64,000 nt of DNA from an uncultured Eubacterium sp. (GTDB lineage: Bacteria; Bacillota; Clostridia; Lachnospirales; Lachnospiraceae), in contig CAJTRZ010000011.1 in the NCBI GenBank assembly GCA_910578975.1, forward strand, positions 8,252-72,251. Reading direction: 5' to 3'. Shown here piece by piece: positions 28,289-64,000 of this stretch. The notes beneath the pieces were generated by a model, which worked only from the letters and a program-made list of their open reading frames with translations, did no database searches and was not told the origin of the DNA. The position numbers and the translations under genes were made by a program. Positions within the stretch are counted from its first letter, which is position 1, and each line of letters begins with the position of its first letter.

Positions 28289-28519
28289 TCATTCCTCTTC
28301 ACAAATTTCGAAACATTCATCCTGAAAAAATTCCATCAAATTCATTTCTAATCCATTACATATCTTATTCAATGTCGATATCGTAGGATTTGTTCCATTC
28401 ATAATATTCATCAGTGTTGATTTCGGAATCGCAGACCGATACGCAAGGGCATAGTATGACATTCTTTTTTCGAAACATAAATCTTTAATTCTTTTAATAA
28501 CTGCTTCGCTGGAATTCAT
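28289..28519 (-). CDS. Small XRE-family HTH transcriptional regulator (copy A)
   Basis: 76 aa. MSYYALAYRSAIPKSTLMNIMNG..TISTLNKICNGL is an XRE-type HTH. A close paralog lies at 63110..63340. Confidence 0.85.
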   Translation of the reverse strand: MNSSEAVIKRIKDLCFEKRMSYYALAYRSAIPKSTLMNIMNGTNPTISTLNKICNGLEMNLMEFFQDECFEICEEE

Positions 28520-28529
28520 TACGCTCTCC

Positions 28530-28591
28530 TATATATGGTACTAAGGTTATTTTACTAATAAAATTCACTACCTAGGACTATATATGGTACT
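28530..28591 (-). promoter_or_regulatory. Pair of 13-bp direct repeats (TATATATGGTACT) in the XRE copy A promoter region; candidate operator
   Basis: Identical 13-mers at 28530-28542 and 28579-28591, 49 bp apart. The same arrangement and spacing occur upstream of copy B. Confidence 0.5.
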
Positions 28592-28675
28592 TATAAGGCT
28601 ATTATTTTCAAAAATACGTAATTCATCCAAATAAAAAAGACAAAAGTGAATAACTATTCACTTCTGTCTCTACGC

Positions 28676-52321: not shown

Positions 52322-52558
52322 ATGTCGAATAATTTTAGATGCTCATGCAATGGCAGTCATCAAAGCCATAATCATGCCCCTTGTCACACATGCCACAACG
52401 ACCACCATCACGGCAATGATTGGCGTGATGAGCGTAGAGATGACTGGCGTGACGAGCGTAGAGATGACTGGCGTGACGAACAGAGAGATGATAGACACCA
52501 TGAACACAGGAATAACAGATGCAACTGGTGCAATAATAATTTCTGGCCTTGGAGATAA
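52322..52558 (+). CDS. Small His/Cys-rich protein with three DWRDE(R/Q)RD repeats
   Basis: Strong RBS AAAGGAGAG 7 nt upstream of the ATG, a putative promoter (TTGCAC, 18 nt, TATTAT) and a GC-rich terminator downstream. 78 aa: MSNNFRCSCNGSHQSHNHAPCHTCHNDHHHGN...RCNWCNNNFWPWR. Confidence 0.5.
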   Translation: MSNNFRCSCNGSHQSHNHAPCHTCHNDHHHGNDWRDERRDDWRDERRDDWRDEQRDDRHHEHRNNRCNWCNNNFWPWR

Positions 52559-54462: not shown

Positions 54463-54921
54463 CTAATAATCCTCAACTGCACTTTCCACTAATGTATCAC
54501 CTTCATATACAACTTTCAATGTGAAAAAATTATTCTCTTCTATTAATTTCTTTAAAAAGATCCTATCACCTTCCCAAATGTTTAATTTTAATATGTCCTT
54601 CTTATCTACCCATTTCAATTCTCCCTCATCACACTCACTTAACTCACCTGAAAACTCACTCGCAGTAAATAAATACATATATTCTGTCTTCCATTCATTT
54701 GATATAAATGTAATCACTGCCCGTAGCCTGTACTTTGTCAATGTAAGACCTGTCTCTTCAAATACTTCTCGTAAAAGACATTCTTCAGGTGTTTCGTCTT
54801 TTTCGAATTTTCCTCCTACCCCAATCCATTTCCCTTCATTTAAGTCATTTTCTTTCTTCGTTCTATGAAGCATTAAGTATTTATCATTCTTTTCTATATA
54901 ACAAAGCGTTGTATTAATCAT
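54463..54921 (-). CDS. NUDIX hydrolase (MutT-like)
   Basis: Nudix box GVGGKFEKDETPEECLLREVFEETGL. Start at the ATG at 54919-54921 with RBS AAAGGAA. Confidence 0.85.
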   Translation of the reverse strand: MINTTLCYIEKNDKYLMLHRTKKENDLNEGKWIGVGGKFEKDETPEECLLREVFEETGLTLTKYRLRAVITFISNEWKTEYMYLFTASEFSGELSECDEGELKWVDKKDILKLNIWEGDRIFLKKLIEENNFFTLKVVYEGDTLVESAVEDY

Positions 54922-54979: not shown

Positions 54980-55018
54980 AATAAAAGCATGATGCATATA
55001 AACATCATGCTTTTATAA
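54980..55018 (-). terminator. Second of two tandem terminators downstream of the LytTR-box promoter
   Basis: 11-bp stem aaagcatgatg / catcatgcttt, followed on the minus strand by TTTTATTT. Confidence 0.7.
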
Positions 55019-55031
55019 AAACTCTTAACTT

Positions 55032-55068
55032 CAACAAAAGCACTAGTCCAAACAGCCTAGTGCTTTCA
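55032..55068 (-). terminator. First tandem terminator downstream of the LytTR-box promoter
   Basis: Stem agcactag / ctagtgct, followed on the minus strand by TTTTGTTG. Confidence 0.65.
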
Positions 55069-55160
55069 TCGCCCCCCATTTTTCCATATCAATTTTTCTT
55101 TTCATTATGATATGGTAATTATAAAATCCATACTCCTTTGAATAGTAATTTAACTATCCA
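55032..55160 (-). ncRNA. Candidate LytTR-activated short transcript (regulatory RNA and/or micropeptide mRNA)
   Basis: Bounded by a predicted promoter (boxes, TTGACT, 17 nt, TATTTT) and a terminator. Contains only tiny ORFs: an 8-aa ORF MDFIITIS whose AGGAG lies 1 nt from the ATG, and a 20-aa ORF MKRKIDMEKWGAMKALGCLD (55043..55105) with no SD. Confidence 0.3.
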
Positions 55161-55165
55161 CCCCT

Positions 55166-55237
55166 AAAATAATAATATTCAACAAATGAGTCAATAGAAT
55201 CTGCACGAACGATAGTGATTTTTGCATAAACGATAGT
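55166..55237 (-). promoter_or_regulatory. LytTR-type operator (two 9-bp direct repeats 21 bp apart) plus putative -35/-10, copy 1
   Basis: AACGATAGT at 55208-55216 and 55229-55237 (minus strand: ACTATCGTTTATGCA / ACTATCGTTCGTGCA). -35 TTGACT (55189-55194) and -10 TATTTT (55166-55171) on the minus strand. Confidence 0.6.
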
Positions 55238-55301
55238 ATTTTTTATAGTACCAGTGTGTTATTATGTAATTTTACTTCTTATTAACATATTTAATTCCAA
55301 T

Positions 55302-55325
55302 AAAAAAAGCCACTTTCGTGACTCT
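55302..55325 (-). terminator. Terminator after the kinase/regulator operon
   Basis: Minus strand: AGUCAC-GAAA-GUGGCU followed by UUUUUUU, immediately after the stop at 55326. Confidence 0.6.
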
Positions 55326-56026
55326 TTATGCATTTCCGCAATCATATATTCTCTTTAAATATACTCTTTTAAATTCCCAAAGTTTTCTCTGTGCAACATC
55401 CAAGTCACTTCCATCTTTCATGTACACAATCAAATTCTCTAACCTCTCAACCTCATCTAAGTTCACAATAAAAGACTTGTGACACCTGAAAAACCATTTA
55501 TCACACAACTCCTTTTCAAACTCTTTCATGCTGGTATTACACCTTTTATTTCATGCTTCATGTGAACAATGACATTGTGACTGGCTCCTTCCACATAACT
55601 AATATCTTTTAATGTAATTTCCCGTACTCCTTCTCCAACAATATTTACTTTAATTCTCTTATTTCTTTCTAAAAGAGTTTCTGCAGATTCTAATGCTTCG
55701 ATGATTAACTCTTCCATCCTTTCTTTGTTAATATATCTAAAAGCATTTACTAAATATCCTCTATCACACATTTCAGTATGTGTTGTAAGAATCATGTATA
55801 CACTTTCCGGATATCTCTTCCTTGCCTTCTTTATCGTTTCAAAGCCATCTATGCCATTCATCTCTATATCAATAAAAGAGATATCGTACTCGATTTCACT
55901 TTCCAGATACTCTTCACCACTTTCATAAAAGTCTATATTAATAATCTCATTTCTATAATAATTTATAATACAACTCTTTGCCCTGTCGCGATATAACTGT
56001 AAATCATCTACTACTGCAATTTTCAA
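55326..56026 (-). pseudogene. LytTR-family response regulator interrupted by a frameshift (ORFs 55526..56026 and 55326..55529)
   Basis: The upstream ORF holds the receiver domain (VVDD, FIDIEMNG) plus the first half of the LytTR domain (ITLKDISYVEG..VIVHMKHEIKG). The downstream ORF holds the second half (FFRCHKSFIVNLDEV). The two frames join between 55530 and 55552. Confidence 0.75.
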
Positions 56027-57321
56027 CTCTCTACCTCCTGATTCGCGAGCATCACCGTAACAGAGTAAATGTTTTTCTCAATGTCAATATCTATCATTCC
56101 ATGATTCCGCATGACAGCATCTTTTATATTTTCTACTCCGAATCCATGATACTCTATATCTTTTTTCGTCGTTATGATTTTACTATGACGGAATTGCCCT
56201 TCGTCTTTGAATGTATTCTTTGTTATAATGATAATACTTTCTTTTGTATATCTACATTCCATAGAAATTCTTTTTTCTACAGACTTTTCTGCAGCCTCTA
56301 ATGCGTTGCTTAATAGATTAGAGAATATCGTACATAAATCATATGCTGAAATCTTACAGATTTTCGGAAACATTCCTTTTATCTCAATGTTAATGCCTTT
56401 TTGTGCGGCCTCAGAATAGTATTTATTCACAATCGCATCTACGATACCATTATTTACTGTAATAACATTTCCAAAACTGTCTATTTTAATATTGATATCT
56501 TTCATGTATTCATCAAAGTTCGAATACATATCATTCTTTGCCATACTAGACAAAACCTGCATATGACTTTTAATATCATGCCGAAACTTCTTTGTATCTT
56601 TTTCTCTCTGTTCCAAATATTTGTAATGCTTTATTTGTTCATTCAAATATTTCCCTGTCATTTCTTCTTTTTCCTTGTATGTATCTCTAGAAATAATTAA
56701 TAAAATAACAGCAGCTAACTGTATGAAAATTCCAATGATTGTAATTAAAAATAAACTTAAGAATAATACTTTGTGACTTCCTTTATAATCATCGACCAAT
56801 ATTGTTCCTAAACTCATAATAACAAAGGCATCTGCTGTAGCAAGAATTGTAAATAAAAATAATTTTAAAAATCCAATATTTTTAATTCCAATCTTATATT
56901 TTCTTTTATATATTTGACCTATCAATAACATGAAAAGCAATGAAACGGCTGAAGCCGTCAATTCTCCCACCCGTTCATTAGAATATTTTAACATATCAAA
57001 TAATACAGTTACCATTTCCGTGAACAACAAATCCAGCATTGACGTCAAAAATATTATCCAAATACCAGAAATAATTAATTCATATATTTTCTCATCATAA
57101 ATCAAGCAGATATATAAACATAATGCCATGAAAAAAGAAGCAAATGTAATCATGTCATTATTATAAATATGCAATAACAATGAGAAAATAAGCATTACAA
57201 CTGTAGAAACAACAGTTATATATTTTCTTTTTCTCTTTCGAAACATAAATATTAAATCACATAAAATAATAATTTTTAACAAATGCAATGCATCTGTTAA
57301 TACATACATAATCCGCTCCAT
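56023..57321 (-). CDS. AgrC-like (HPK10-type) membrane sensor histidine kinase
   Basis: About 6 N-terminal TM segments, H-box FRHDIKSH, N-box SNLLSNALEA, G-box HGFGVENI. Start MERIMYV with RBS GGAGGAA. Overlaps the regulator gene by 4 nt. Confidence 0.85.
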   Translation of the reverse strand: MERIMYVLTDALHLLKIIILCDLIFMFRKRKRKYITVVSTVVMLIFSLLLHIYNNDMITFASFFMALCLYICLIYDEKIYELIISGIWIIFLTSMLDLLFTEMVTVLFDMLKYSNERVGELTASAVSLLFMLLIGQIYKRKYKIGIKNIGFLKLFLFTILATADAFVIMSLGTILVDDYKGSHKVLFLSLFLITIIGIFIQLAAVILLIISRDTYKEKEEMTGKYLNEQIKHYKYLEQREKDTKKFRHDIKSHMQVLSSMAKNDMYSNFDEYMKDINIKIDSFGNVITVNNGIVDAIVNKYYSEAAQKGINIEIKGMFPKICKISAYDLCTIFSNLLSNALEAAEKSVEKRISMECRYTKESIIIITKNTFKDEGQFRHSKIITTKKDIEYHGFGVENIKDAVMRNHGMIDIDIEKNIYSVTVMLANQEVES

Positions 57322-57502
57322 AAAATTCCTCCGTAATCCCAACTATTAATATAATTATAACAAAAAATTGGGAAATACGGAAGAATTTAACATTTTACTT
57401 GCTTTATCGACAACTAAAACCAACGTCTCATAAAGTGCCAAAAACTATTAAACAACACATAATCCTTTCCGTATATACTTATGTATTGTCCGGACAAGGA
57501 TT

Positions 57503-57573
57503 AGCATAATTTATTTAATTTTTTTGTAAATACAATCTGCACGAACGATAGTGATTTCTGCGTAAACGATAGT
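57503..57573 (-). promoter_or_regulatory. LytTR-type operator plus putative -35/-10, copy 2 (upstream of the kinase operon)
   Basis: AACGATAGT at 57544-57552 and 57565-57573. The block 57535-57576 differs from 55199-55240 at 2 positions across the first 40 bp (through the second AACGATAGT box and the following A); the last 2 bp also differ. -35 TTTACA (57525-57530) and -10 TATGCT (57503-57508) on the minus strand, at the same offset as in copy 1. Confidence 0.6.
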
Positions 57574-57742
57574 AAATTTATTAAAAAAACACAACATTTA
57601 TATAAAATACAAACGTTGTGCTAATGTTATTTTTATTTAATAAAAACATACTCACTATCAGATGATTGTTCTAAACCATACTTATAATCTAACCTGTCAA
57701 ACTTCTCTAACCTCTCATAATTCTTCCCCTAGTTCTTTTTTA

Positions 57743-58789
57743 TTATAAACATTTTCGAAATGCAGTCGGCAATGGTACTGTGTTGTTCAACTCTTCTTTT
57801 GAAACCCATTTAAAAGAATCATTCATTTCTTTGCAGACAATATGGTAACAGTTCATTTGCCATTCCAAATGCGTAAAAATATGTTTTGTGTTTTTATGCT
57901 TCTCTATCTGAATTATTTCAATCCCCTGTTGTTCTAACCACTTACCAATCTCTTCTTCAGTCAACTTCCTATCTATATTAGGAAATTCCCATAAACCGGC
58001 TAAAAGCCCCTGTTCGCCTCTTTGCCTTACAGCAATTTTGTCTCCCGCCGATATAATAAGTACTGTTTTATTTATCTTTTTGCGCTGTGGTTTCATTTGT
58101 TTTACAGGATACTTGTGCCATGTATTATTTTTGTATGCACTACATCCACTCTTCAATGGGCACTCTTCACATTTTGGTTCTCCGTTTGGAACACAGACAG
58201 TAGCTCCTAGTTCCATTAAACTTTGTGTAAATTCACTGCAATAACCTATTGGGTAAATCTCTTCCAGCCTTTCACCAATCTGTTTCTTAAATTTTTCATT
58301 TTTAATATCTGCATTATTTTCTTCTAATCTGGTTATTACACGAAGCACATTTCCATCGACTGCGGAACAAGGCTGTCCAAATGCAATTGAACTGATAGCC
58401 CCTGCTGTATATTTTCCAATCCCCGGAAGTTTCAATATCTCCGAATACTCCCCAGGAAACTTTCCTCTGTACTGTTCACACATAACCTCTGCCGCTTTTT
58501 TTAGATTTCTTGCCCGAGAGTAATATCCTAATCCTTCCCACAATTTCATAACCTTTTCTTCTGGTGCCTCTGCCAGTGTTGCAATATTCGGGAAGTTCTC
58601 CATAAATCTCTGATAATAAGATATTACTGCCTCAACTCTGGTCTGCTGCAACATTATTTCTGAAACCCATACACGATATGGATCACTGTTTTCTCTCCAT
58701 GGAAGTACCCTTGCCTGCTCCTCGTACCATTGAAGCAATGGATCTACGATCCACTGTAGTGATTTTTTATCTTCCTTTATATTTAACAT
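57743..58789 (-). CDS. mutY: A/G-specific adenine DNA glycosylase
   Basis: LPWR..DPYRVWVSEIMLQQT, HhH-GPD (LPGIGKYTAGAI), 4Fe-4S Cys cluster (C..C..C..C) and a C-terminal NUDIX-like domain. The start is uncertain (58789 to 58894); 58789 avoids overlap with the upstream gene. Confidence 0.88.
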   Translation of the reverse strand: MLNIKEDKKSLQWIVDPLLQWYEEQARVLPWRENSDPYRVWVSEIMLQQTRVEAVISYYQRFMENFPNIATLAEAPEEKVMKLWEGLGYYSRARNLKKAAEVMCEQYRGKFPGEYSEILKLPGIGKYTAGAISSIAFGQPCSAVDGNVLRVITRLEENNADIKNEKFKKQIGERLEEIYPIGYCSEFTQSLMELGATVCVPNGEPKCEECPLKSGCSAYKNNTWHKYPVKQMKPQRKKINKTVLIISAGDKIAVRQRGEQGLLAGLWEFPNIDRKLTEEEIGKWLEQQGIEIIQIEKHKNTKHIFTHLEWQMNCYHIVCKEMNDSFKWVSKEELNNTVPLPTAFRKCL

Positions 58790-58796
58790 ATCTTTA

Positions 58797-59417
58797 TCAT
58801 TCATATCTTTTTTCATACTTTCTCTTTGCTTCTTCCGTATATTTTTTAATAAATTCTGTTTTTGCATTTGTATAACCATCTCGATTATGCTCATACTTCT
58901 TCCATAGCTTCAATTTCAACTCTTCATACTGTCTTGCTACATCGTAATATTCTTTTAAATAATCTCTAAAATATAATTCATCATTATCTCCTGCATATCT
59001 CAAATGTAGATGAAACACTCTCTCTGCAAAACCATTTTCAGTATAACCTTTATTAAAAGACATTCTATTCGTAGTCTGACTCATACAAATATAGTCATTA
59101 CAAACTAATTGTTTCTTTATTTCTTCCATATCGTATACTTCCGGTATTTCCACCAAAATATCAATAATAGGTTTTGCCCAAATTGTATCAACAGCAGTAC
59201 TTCCAATATGGCTGATTTTGTACGTTATATCTGATTTTAATATCTTTTCTATATTGTCTTTCTCATCACAAAACCATTTTTTCCAGTAGACCTGATGCTC
59301 TGTAAGAGATATTGGAAAAAGTTCCCACAGTTCCTTCATACTCATTTCTGATAAACCTTTTCTTTTCTCAGAACAAACTCTCTTCTCCATTTCATCATAT
59401 TTTTTTATGTATCCCAC
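58797..59417 (-). CDS. GrpB/UPF0157 family protein
   Basis: ISHIGSTAV..AKPIIDILV and HLHL motifs. The track start is a GTG; the ATG at 59345 (MSMKEL) is more plausible. Confidence 0.75.
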   Translation of the reverse strand: MGYIKKYDEMEKRVCSEKRKGLSEMSMKELWELFPISLTEHQVYWKKWFCDEKDNIEKILKSDITYKISHIGSTAVDTIWAKPIIDILVEIPEVYDMEEIKKQLVCNDYICMSQTTNRMSFNKGYTENGFAERVFHLHLRYAGDNDELYFRDYLKEYYDVARQYEELKLKLWKKYEHNRDGYTNAKTEFIKKYTEEAKRKYEKRYE

Positions 59418-63109: not shown

Positions 63110-63340
63110 TTAATCTTCCTCACAATATTCAAAACATTCATCCTGAAAGAAATCCATCAGACTCATTTCAAATCCATTGCAGATTTTATTCAATGTAGAA
63201 ACGGTAGGATTTGTTCCATTTATAATATTCATTAATGTTGATTTTGGAATAGCAGAACGATATGCCAGGGCATAGTAAGACATTCTTTTTTCGAAACATA
63301 AATCATTAATTCTTTTAATAACTGCTTCGCTAGAATTCAT
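63110..63340 (-). CDS. Small XRE-family HTH transcriptional regulator (copy B)
   Basis: 76 aa, differing from copy A at about 9 positions and the same length. Confidence 0.85.
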   Translation of the reverse strand: MNSSEAVIKRINDLCFEKRMSYYALAYRSAIPKSTLMNIINGTNPTVSTLNKICNGFEMSLMDFFQDECFEYCEED

Positions 63341-63351
63341 TATACCCCTCC

Positions 63352-63413
63352 CATATATAGTCCTAACATAATTTTACTAACAAATTTCAGCATTTAGGGC
63401 TATATATAGTACT
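63352..63413 (-). promoter_or_regulatory. Pair of 13-bp direct repeats (CATATATAGTCCT / TATATATAGTACT) upstream of XRE copy B; candidate operator
   Basis: Same 49-bp spacing and position relative to the start codon as in copy A. Confidence 0.45.
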
Positions 63414-63462
63414 TATTGGGCTATTATTTACAAAAAAATAAATTTATTACACACCCCCCTTT

Positions 63463-63924
63463 TTATTGTTCTGCCAAACACAAATTAATCTTCTCAATAT
63501 TTTTCTTAGTAATACGATATCCTACAATAGACATAATGATATAAGTAACAACGAAACCGCATATTGTTCCAATCAACGCCTGCGGATACTTATGAAGCTG
63601 CCAGACTAAAGTAACAATCGGCACCCACACCATACTTGTTACAATGAAATACAAAATATTTTGCACAATAAACCCCAGCCTGTCTTTCTCATATATAATC
63701 GCTGCTAGCGAAAAAGCTACACCGATAATTCCATACAACAAAATATTAACCTCTACAGCAATGCTTTCCGACGGAAATAAAGCAACAAACTCTGGTGATA
63801 AAGGAAGAAAATCTTTACTACCTGTTACCGTTCGTACTACAAACTCAATCAAAAAATTCGTTATGTTTCCACATACAGCAGAAACCGCAAAACTAAAGAT
63901 ACATCTATATAAAATCTCTTTCAT
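63463..63924 (-). CDS. DUF3021 family membrane protein
   Basis: 153 aa, 4 TM segments. The N-terminus MKEILYRCIFSFAVSAV resembles DUF3021 proteins, which usually follow a LytTR-type DNA-binding gene. RBS GGAG upstream. Confidence 0.7.
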   Translation of the reverse strand: MKEILYRCIFSFAVSAVCGNITNFLIEFVVRTVTGSKDFLPLSPEFVALFPSESIAVEVNILLYGIIGVAFSLAAIIYEKDRLGFIVQNILYFIVTSMVWVPIVTLVWQLHKYPQALIGTICGFVVTYIIMSIVGYRITKKNIEKINLCLAEQ

Positions 63925-64000
63925 CTCTTTTCTCCTCTCTGACCAATTCCCAGTACCTCCTTTAACTTACTTACATTTCTTCTAGATGTATAGGTCTCTG

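Follow-up and report, generated by a model that had tools for sequence, protein, structure and literature searches.

Which signal does an apparently orphan kinase–regulator pair of a gut bacterium of the Clostridia answer to, and which transcripts would it control? Circuits of LytTR-domain regulators and their sensor kinases are well studied in pathogens. Much less has been worked out for the commensal Clostridia of the gut, in which no signal gene is apparent for many AgrC/AgrA-like pairs, so that they seem to be orphans. The question is raised here by a stretch of 64,000 nucleotides (nt) from an uncultured Eubacterium sp. of the Lachnospiraceae (assembly GCA_910578975.1, contig CAJTRZ010000011.1, positions 8,252 to 72,251; the whole stretch is hereafter called the window), in which a 40-bp module occurs twice and brackets a minus-strand operon for a histidine kinase and a LytTR response regulator. 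The locus probably encodes a two-component circuit of the LytTR family and the peptide quorum-sensing type, in which the regulator would act on two tandem minus-strand promoters, one driving the operon behind a leader with an unannotated 13-codon open reading frame (ORF) and the other a structured RNA of 133 nt (Table 1).

The blocks at 55199-55240 (copy A, downstream of the operon) and 57535-57576 (copy B, upstream of it) differ at 2 of their first 40 positions (38/40 identical). The window contains the sequence AACGATAGT four times and no more (55208, 55229, 57544, 57565), in two pairs whose members begin 21 bp apart. With up to three mismatches allowed, the 36-bp core matches only these two sites, versus 0.00 matches expected from 100 dinucleotide-preserving shuffles, and the relaxed pattern CTATCGTT-N13-CTATCGTT, again with up to three mismatches, finds the same two sites and no others in the 64 kb. 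The twin module and its paired 9-mers, reported in a preliminary description of this DNA, are borne out by these counts; the repeat unit, taken there to be 9 bp, proves to be 16 bp, reading yACTATCGTTyryGCA on the minus strand as a direct repeat with a 21-bp period. In both copies the distal repeat is TACTATCGTTTAyGCA and the proximal repeat is CACTATCGTTCGTGCA, followed by 7 nt (GATTsTA), a -35-like hexamer and, 16 or 17 nt further on, a -10-like hexamer. LytTR regulators bind imperfect direct repeats of about 9 bp with the consensus [TA][AC][CA]GTTN[AG][TG], spaced by 12-13 bp and located upstream of the -35 (PMC5600425), and the same 9+12 repeat geometry upstream of the -35 has been published elsewhere (PMC2766830). 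The window repeats ATCGTTCGT and ATCGTTTAT (or ATCGTTTAT/C) fit this consensus at every specified position except the second. Both copies have the hallmarks of a LytTR operator, namely paired repeats of about 9 bp in a fixed register just upstream of a sigma-70-type -35, and the AgrA/ComE/PlnC-like geometry proposed earlier, including the common 7-nt offset to the minus-strand hexamers TTGACT and TTTACA, is upheld.

The arrangement is found well beyond the window. In the related loci L002-L007, L034, L045, L077, L079, L082 and L083, whose kinases are 62-93% identical to the window kinase, one module precedes the kinase gene and another follows the regulator gene, and the upstream operator is kept before the kinase gene in 15 related loci. 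Among 20 distinct module sequences from 16 loci, repeat period and distance to the -35 are constant, the proximal ACTATCGTT starting 22 nt before the first base of the -35 in 20/20; the exception lies elsewhere, in an extra copy in L075 that is degenerate and has no -35. The -35 hexamers differ systematically between the two positions (TTTACA at the operon promoter vs TTGAC[GT] at the second). The upstream promoter hexamers, TTTAC(A/T) and TAT(T/G)CT, stay in register across the compared loci, and the second promoter (TTGAC(G/T), 17 nt, TACnTT or TATTTT, with the 5' hairpin of the RNA 7 nt further on) is present in 9/9 full-length homologues. Even the distant loci L084, L085, L087 and L088 (kinase 42-49% identical) carry 21-bp direct repeats by a -35 at both positions, with a drifted repeat sequence such as ACACTTATCGAAAAT or TAACnnTTATGTAAAAA; drift in step with regulator divergence is expected if operator and regulator co-evolve. 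The module is therefore supported as a LytTR-type operator/promoter element, that is, a predicted binding site, and its upkeep before the kinase gene in orthologous loci, with repeats that diverge along with the regulator, agrees with the autoregulation first proposed from the copy in front of the operon. Because both positions are kept even in distant homologues, the predicted two-promoter tandem layout is a design conserved throughout a family of PF14501/LytTR pairs.

A scan of 185,579 species genomes with ACTATCGTT-N12-ACTATCGTT showed that relatives of the window organism hold 2 to 5 module copies per genome. The species of the window itself did not appear among the matches; the nearest of them (L034, L045) are 89-90% identical to the window, and the nearest ones are labelled Eubacterium sp., Eubacteriaceae or Lachnospiraceae. 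A dispersed repeat at unrelated positions had been named as an outcome that would overturn the operator reading; apart from the degenerate L075 site, the extra copies sit in promoter geometry before secreted-protein genes, namely Big_2 and Peptidase_S8 genes, a gene for a DUF6973 secreted protein and one for a small lipoprotein, which is not how a dispersed repeat is distributed. The cargo behind the second promoter varies as well and comprises the structured RNA with or without Big_2/S8 genes, a lactococcin-972-like set (L084), polysaccharide genes (L085), and PP2C and serine/threonine kinase genes (L087). In L084 (6565-9576) the second promoter is followed by genes for a secreted protein of 141 aa, for a membrane protein of 641 aa that matches DUF1430 weakly and under the Pfam cut-off, and for an ATPase of the ATP-binding cassette (ABC) type; by its gene content this set resembles a lactococcin-972-type bacteriocin cluster, as would suit a family that serves quorum sensing.

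Most of the 74 genome-scan matches are chance or unrelated 21-bp tandem repeats. In Alloprevotella tannerae (L011, L013, L014, L018, L020, L027 and others), tandem arrays of the 21-bp unit AAACTATCGTTTGsyGGsAGC are dispersed over many genomic sites; they fit the search pattern because their period happens to coincide with it, and have nothing to do with the module. Three metagenome-assembled genomes assigned to Oscillospiraceae, Bacillota and Ruminococcaceae (L019, L035, L043) carry a distinct related module, ACTATCGTTTATCGnnAAAAnACTATCGTTTATCGGTTTTCTATTGCA, followed by a -10 and a ribosome-binding site, which is probably the operator of another LytTR system with a common ACTATCGTT half-site.

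The proteins encoded between the modules agree with this assignment. The kinase has the build of the HPK10 (AgrC/ComD-type) family: its N-terminal sensor is polytopic, an H-box is present, and the C-terminus is a GHKL domain of family PF14501 (E = 1.3e-19). The nearest solved relatives of the regulator are ComE and the AgrA LytTR domain, with weak E-values, and its score of 41 bits against the AgrA equivalog NF046049, for which the cut-off is 400, means that it is no AgrA orthologue. No AgrB family member was found among the 20 window ORFs scanned or in the neighbour tables, and no peptidase-C39 ABC exporter among the window ORFs scanned.

The signal gene that seems to be missing may lie in the leader. 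The leader of the upstream promoter, about 175 nt long, is more conserved than the coding genes, and its conserved Shine-Dalgarno (SD) sequence GGAAAGGA lies in an invariant stretch, GTATATACGGAAAGGA. In 16/16 loci this SD is followed after 6-7 nt by a micro-ORF of 13-16 codons with a TTG or GTG start, in the window encoding MFNSFWHFMRRWF, and sequence conservation in the leader stops directly past its stop codon. Ten distinct 13-codon alleles share an invariant W12, F13 and stop, and W-F/Y-stop is largely kept across the wider set; 5, 6 and 9 columns vary at codon positions 1, 2 and 3, respectively, and synonymous pairs are present (AGT/AGC, TTT/TTC, CAC/CAT, TAG/TAA). As in three-component pheromone operons, a small predicted peptide ORF with its own SD thus lies between the presumed autoinduced promoter and the kinase gene. 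The statement that no agrB/agrD, double-glycine leader peptide or transporter gene is visible holds for AgrB, double-glycine and C39 genes among the ORFs scanned and is probably wrong for the peptide gene, given a 13-codon TTG ORF with an SD where agrD or comC would sit. An ATG-initiated upstream ORF in the same region (MCCLIVFGTL, 57462..57430) was rejected: its length ranges from 9 to 71 codons, its ATG is missing in L084, L087 and L088, and the overlapping TTG frame, together with a predicted RNA helix (H1), accounts for the bases conserved in it.

That peptide and sensor vary together is the chief reason for regarding the micro-ORF product as the likely partner of the kinase and as a candidate signal peptide. 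Between L082 and L083 the kinase domain and the regulator are both 100% identical, at 44% identity of the sensor and 54% of the peptide; the corresponding values for kinase domain, regulator, sensor and peptide are 98, 99, 50 and 38% between L007 and L077, and 98, 95, 51 and 69% between L003 and L006. Three database alleles (P0010-P0012) are 93-94% identical to the window in the kinase domain and 46-49% in the sensor. Where the peptide is identical to that of the window, as in L034 (kinase domain 93%, regulator 91%, sensor 91%, peptide 100%) and L045 (94, 92, 89 and 100%), the sensor is no more diverged than the remaining protein. The hypervariable block accordingly consists of the peptide and the transmembrane sensor domain, beside a nearly invariant kinase domain and regulator. 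Such a block is the signature of the agr and com specificity groups, and the variation seen here is a pherotype-like pattern of the agr/com kind.

Between micro-ORF and kinase gene the leader is predicted to form a second hairpin, H2, whose consensus helix of 20 bp extends a few bases past each arm core and in which the anti-SD TTCTTCCGTAnTT pairs with the kinase ribosome-binding site GATTACGGAGGAA. Compensatory changes are found in 11/20 pairs, and in L085, L087 and L088 the arms differ wholly in sequence and the pairing is retained. H2 is in the minimum-energy fold of five lineages; in the consensus of H1 and H2, 94% of cells are paired vs 42-53% in slid controls, and 0/500 shuffles reach the observed values. 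The H2 loop holds a conserved extended -10, a putative constitutive internal promoter, and a transcript starting there would be devoid of the anti-SD arm. At about the predicted transcription start of the upstream promoter lies a perfect 12-bp palindrome, which reads TTGTCTAGACAA or TTATCCGGATAA in distant loci; such symmetric changes speak less for an RNA hairpin than for a site at which a second protein, a dimer, would bind, and the palindrome may alternatively be part of the 5' RNA. No Rfam family covers the leader in the window or in five homologous loci, and neither scans of JGI metagenomes with a leader 21-mer and the kinase protein nor a plasmid search with the leader gave a match.

The leader also feeds the alternative that we consider possible but rather unlikely, in which the 13-codon ORF encodes no secreted signal and is instead a cis-acting leader peptide, an MgrB-like membrane modulator of the kinase, or an effector of the AgrA-controlled phenol-soluble modulin type. 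The SD region of the micro-ORF (TACGGAAAGGA) and that of the kinase (TTACGGAGGA) are both complementary to the same anti-SD, which would permit alternative pairings in the leader, and the peptide carries no leader sequence, double-glycine motif or cysteine and has no conserved adjoining exporter. A purely cis-acting stalling peptide, on the other hand, is not expected to diversify with the sensor while kinase domain and regulator remain 98-100% identical, and a gap of about 29 nt separates the micro-ORF stop from the anti-SD, more than a ribosome could occlude directly; the membrane-modulator variant may still apply.

The second module copy had been seen to follow the operon terminator and to face a second target; its position stands, and the target turns out to be no protein gene but a 133-nt RNA that appears to be structured and non-coding. 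The window RNA folds with -35.9 kcal/mol (z = -5.95). The 5' hairpin (P1) and the terminator are retained when nine homologues are folded to a consensus, which has five compensatory pairs, and when the nine are folded singly the three-hairpin plan, including P2, appears in 9/9. P2 covaries, pairing CCAUAUCA with UGAUAUGG in the window, CCAUAUCG with CGAUGUGG in L003, CCACAUU with AAUGUGG in L082 and CUCCAUA with UAUGGAG in L007. By covariance model the RNA is single-copy in the window and elsewhere occurs solely directly after modules, and its sequence shows a predicted promoter, a hairpin that begins the RNA at +1, the three conserved hairpins and a terminator. No reading frame within it is conserved across the compared loci; the ORFs MDFIITIS, MKRKIDMEKWGAMKALGCLD and MKALGCLD were dismissed, as neither frame nor start is kept and the start varies among AUG, UUG, GUG and ACG. 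Rfam holds no family for it in the window or five homologous loci, and predicted whole-length duplexes with the kinase leader did not consistently beat shuffled controls.

In L003, L004, L006 and one of the two L070 copies the RNA is the leader of a Big_2/S8 operon; it stands alone in the window, in L034/L045, L007/L077 and L079, and in the other L070 copy. This distribution gives rise to an unlikely yet serious alternative, that the downstream module is the promoter of a cis-acting leader or attenuator of a lost Big_2/subtilase operon and that the window RNA is a relic. Module and RNA do lie directly upstream of genes for a 625-628-aa Big_2 protein and an S8 peptidase in L003, L004, L006 and L070 (second copy), and, in truncated form, in L010, and the window RNA is followed by a second terminator and then by an unrelated NUDIX gene with its own promoter. 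Against a relic speak the stand-alone RNAs of at least five lineages (window, L034/L045, L007/L077, L079 and the first L070 copy), none of whose three hairpins is disrupted, the coexistence of stand-alone and leader forms in the Lapin-012 genome, and the 100% identity of the RNA between the frameshifted strain and an intact one, described below. Given the stand-alone form here and in four other lineages, the RNA most likely acts as a small regulatory RNA, and by its predicted promoter it would be regulator-dependent and also able to serve as a leader.

The regulator gene of the window is itself broken. One nucleotide is deleted next to 55551 (about codon 159), and the LytTR domain is thereby split near profile position 35, the 67-aa fragment covering LytTR profile positions 36-95, so that the window lacks REC and LytTR intact on a single polypeptide. 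The contig L002, otherwise 99.7% identical, has one extra G (CATGGAAAT vs CATGAAAT in the window) and encodes an intact REC-LytTR protein of 233 aa. The extra base is found in run X13 and the deletion in run X1 and in GCA_949396955.1, where an identical contig was found; the site is a GG dinucleotide and no long homopolymer. In an assembly collection the truncated 166-aa product occurs in 48 blocks, compared with 58 for the exact kinase protein, and the runs holding the locus are mouse-gut samples. The frameshift is a real and common allele. Because the deletion splits the LytTR domain, the regulator is most likely non-functional in the common lineage that carries it, and the circuit with both promoters is probably silent in the window strain. 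The two fragments overlap as ATGA at 55526-55529 (minus strand), the stop of the REC ORF and the start of the LytTR fragment, which permits translational coupling.

A further alternative, very unlikely, is that the modules are operators of a different LytTR protein, such as that of the LytTR/DUF3021 pair at the window end, or sigma-70 up-elements unrelated to the regulator. A second LytTR-domain gene with its DUF3021 partner does lie some 6 kb away; the modules, however, remain tied to the kinase–regulator pair across loci whose other neighbours differ, and their sequence shifts in step with regulator divergence. It is scarcely credible that the two copies arose merely through duplication or recombination, as the borders of a mobile or recombining cassette, and regulate nothing. 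They do form direct repeats, at a distance of 2,336 bp and exactly around the kinase–regulator genes, and strains do recombine in the block that starts at the upstream module and ends with the sensor domain. Against this, the similarity of the copies stops directly past the -35, the -35 hexamers differ systematically in all loci, copies also occur before other genes, outside the cassette, and neither an integrase nor a transposase is adjacent.

In the proposed two-promoter circuit, a dimer of the phosphorylated regulator would occupy the 21-bp-spaced repeats, one helical period upstream of each -35. The first promoter would yield a long mRNA with the 13-codon ORF, the 20-bp hairpin that sequesters the ribosome-binding site, the kinase gene and the regulator gene, and the 13-codon product would probably be the cognate signal peptide or a partner of the sensor domain, with its synthesis, export and sensing being part of the model. 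The extended -10 in the H2 loop may give a short, hairpin-free transcript for basal synthesis of kinase and regulator; if the two transcripts are unequally translated, induction would raise peptide more than receptor output. The second promoter would yield the three-hairpin RNA ending at its intrinsic terminator, which may act in trans as a small regulatory RNA in the manner of FasX, VR-RNA, SpoZ and RNAIII. The window strain, its promoters presumably silenced by the deletion, would resemble an agr-defective variant.

Several observations weigh against this circuit. No exporter or processing gene conserved next to the operon was found in the neighbour tables. The micro-ORF is just 13 codons long, its nonsynonymous differences exceed the synonymous ones (179 vs 62 pairwise), and its first codons overlap H1, which could account for part of the conservation; the co-variation of peptide and sensor could likewise reflect recombination blocks held in common and not ligand–receptor matching. 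The RNA is followed by genes in several relatives and may be just a cis-acting leader. RNA-derived assemblies gave just spurious matches of 18-20 nt to the window locus, and the small RNA was found in none of the RNA runs. Metatranscriptome contigs of 150-170 nt from related species, in assemblies of other samples, do match the conserved leader and micro-ORF on the expected strand, and one ends in a Read-1 adapter with the orientation of a minus-strand RNA. Their 5' ends, though, precede by 7-10 nt the start that the conserved -10 predicts and do not fix a start site; some longer contigs extend across the promoter, and DNA carry-over is possible.

The locus works like several known systems and belongs to none. 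Closest in layout is fasBCAX of Streptococcus pyogenes, in which kinase gene(s), the gene of a LytTR/ComE-like regulator and the small RNA gene fasX follow one another directly on the same strand (PMC12675982), in tandem as here. The likeness extends to the FasA-dependent fasX being expressed from a separate promoter, whose -35 is preceded by a ComE-type repeat site, and to a locus without agrB/agrD; the Fas system differs in its two kinase-like proteins and in that neither a FasA site before the operon nor a peptide ORF is reported (PMC12675982). FasX and the window RNA have no sequence or Rfam family in common, and RNA of the window type is also an operon leader in relatives.

Closest in logic is the agr system of Staphylococcus aureus, where two LytTR-dependent promoters, P2 and P3, drive a peptide–kinase–regulator operon (agrBDCA) and the regulatory RNAIII, respectively. 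The agr promoters carry 9-bp repeats with 12-13-bp spacers upstream of the -35 (PMC5600425). A hypervariable peptide and sensor region beside a conserved kinase domain and regulator is common to agr and the window locus. Natural loss-of-function alleles of the regulator occur in agr, and a probable one, the 1-nt deletion, is also found here. The promoters are in tandem here and divergent in agr, AgrB is missing, and the candidate peptide, with 13 residues and neither cysteine nor flanking pro-sequences, cannot be a thiolactone autoinducing peptide. The earlier comparison with P2/P3 in tandem thus holds for promoter logic and tandem layout and fails for AgrB, for a cysteine-containing precursor of an autoinducing peptide and for AgrA orthology, so that the locus is no agr system proper.

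In gene order the closest systems are comCDE, plnABCD, blpRH-C and sil, with an inducer peptide, an HPK10-type kinase and a LytTR regulator behind a direct-repeat promoter. In three-component pheromone operons of this kind, further repeat-bearing promoters drive cargo genes (PMC2766830). The window differs from them in having no double-glycine leader and no C39 ABC exporter among the ORFs scanned, and its peptide would therefore have to be leaderless. A clostridial precedent is VirSR/VR-RNA of Clostridium perfringens, where a LytTR regulator acting through paired direct repeats is reported to directly activate a small RNA and a few protein genes; in Clostridioides difficile, RgaR directly activates the small RNA SpoZ through VirR-like repeats (PMC10602386). 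In both systems the signal-peptide genes lie elsewhere than next to the system genes (PMC10602386). The two systems differ from the window in their VirR-box-type repeats and in small RNAs that do not directly follow the regulator gene, and in the publications consulted neither a micro-ORF nor a leader that sequesters the ribosome-binding site is described for them.

A broader proposal, put forward tentatively and more apt to fail than to hold, is that MFNSFWHFMRRWF and its alleles (13-16 residues, leaderless, cysteine-free, rich in Trp/Phe) are unmodified signal peptides that form a class of their own, new to science, with genes directly preceding those of PF14501 kinases in Lachnospiraceae/Eubacterium-like Clostridia of the gut. 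Sensing would be AgrC-like without AgrB or a double-glycine exporter, pherotypes would have diversified with the sensor, and the leader RNA, with its invariant SD, anti-SD/SD hairpin and internal promoter, would be a new cis-regulatory device uncoupling signal from receptor output. Apart from this proposal, the signal gene of an apparently orphan pair may be a 13-codon ORF overlooked by gene callers, beside a sensor with agr-like pherotype mosaics. The defined operator could be used to read out regulons in related genomes. The RNA represents a small RNA/leader family that has not been described before and is linked to genes for surface proteins and proteases, and the conserved leader predicted to sequester the kinase ribosome-binding site is a further item of the locus. 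The common frameshifted allele suggests that signal-blind variants are frequent in mouse-gut populations, in parallel to agr-defective staphylococci.

Table 1. Predicted features of the kinase–regulator locus, in the order of transcription (positions in the window).
Feature	Position	Strand	Details
Upstream operator (copy B)	57538..57574	minus	distal repeat 57574..57559 TACTATCGTTTACGCA; proximal repeat 57553..57538 CACTATCGTTCGTGCA; 21-bp period
Upstream (putatively autoinduced) promoter	57503..57530	minus	-35 TTTACA 57530..57525; 16-nt spacer; -10 TATGCT 57508..57503
12-bp palindrome TTGTCCGGACAA	57486..57497	minus	perfect; at about the predicted transcription start (+1)
Shine-Dalgarno GGAAAGGA	57463..57470	minus	invariant alignment columns
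Micro-ORF MFNSFWHFMRRWF, unannotated	57414..57455	minus	TTG start, 13 codons + stop; candidate signal-peptide precursor
Hairpin H2	57326..57385	minus	anti-SD TTCTTCCGTATTT 57385..57373 pairs with kinase SD region GATTACGGAGGAA 57338..57326
Internal promoter, extended -10 TGTTATAAT (TGnTATAAT)	57354..57362	minus	in H2 loop
Histidine kinase, 432 aa	56023..57321	minus	~6-7 transmembrane segments (residues 1-210); H-box FRHDIKSH (His248); GHKL PF14501
Response regulator (REC + LytTR), split	55326..56026	minus	166-aa ORF 56026..55526 + 67-aa ORF 55529..55326
Terminator-like hairpin after regulator gene	55302..55323	minus	AGTCACGAAAGTGGCT then T7; read from sequence
Downstream operator (copy A)	55202..55238	minus	distal repeat 55238..55223; proximal repeat 55217..55202
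Second (putatively regulated) promoter	55166..55194	minus	-35 TTGACT 55194..55189; 17-nt spacer; -10 TATTTT 55171..55166
Structured non-coding RNA, 133 nt	55028..55160	minus	P1 55159..55140; P2 55115..55108 with 55091..55084; terminator stem-loop + U-tract 55071..55032
Second terminator-like hairpin	54981..55016	minus	insulates NUDIX gene 54921..54463, which has its own extended -10

The terminator-like hairpin after the regulator gene is kept in L003, L006 and L082; the terminator scanner did not report the window hairpin. The operon is flanked on the minus strand by mutY (58894..57743) and by the MutT-like NUDIX gene (54921..54463). Most related loci (L003, L004, L006, L007, L082, L083) also have mutY beside the operon, whereas the downstream neighbour varies. 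Further away, the second LytTR gene (63462-64000, minus strand) encodes a stand-alone protein of 154 aa, cut by the window end, and is followed by the gene of a DUF3021 membrane protein, a pairing that resembles the 'LytTR regulatory systems' of streptococci. A small Cys/His-rich ORF on the plus strand (52322-52558; 78 aa as called in L001) has three tandem DWRDERRD repeats and a histidine-rich stretch and is without a recorded Pfam match. Finally, a segment of about 320 bp is duplicated with 85% identity at 28293-28614 and about 63113-63435 of the window, and the latter copy covers a small HTH_26 gene.

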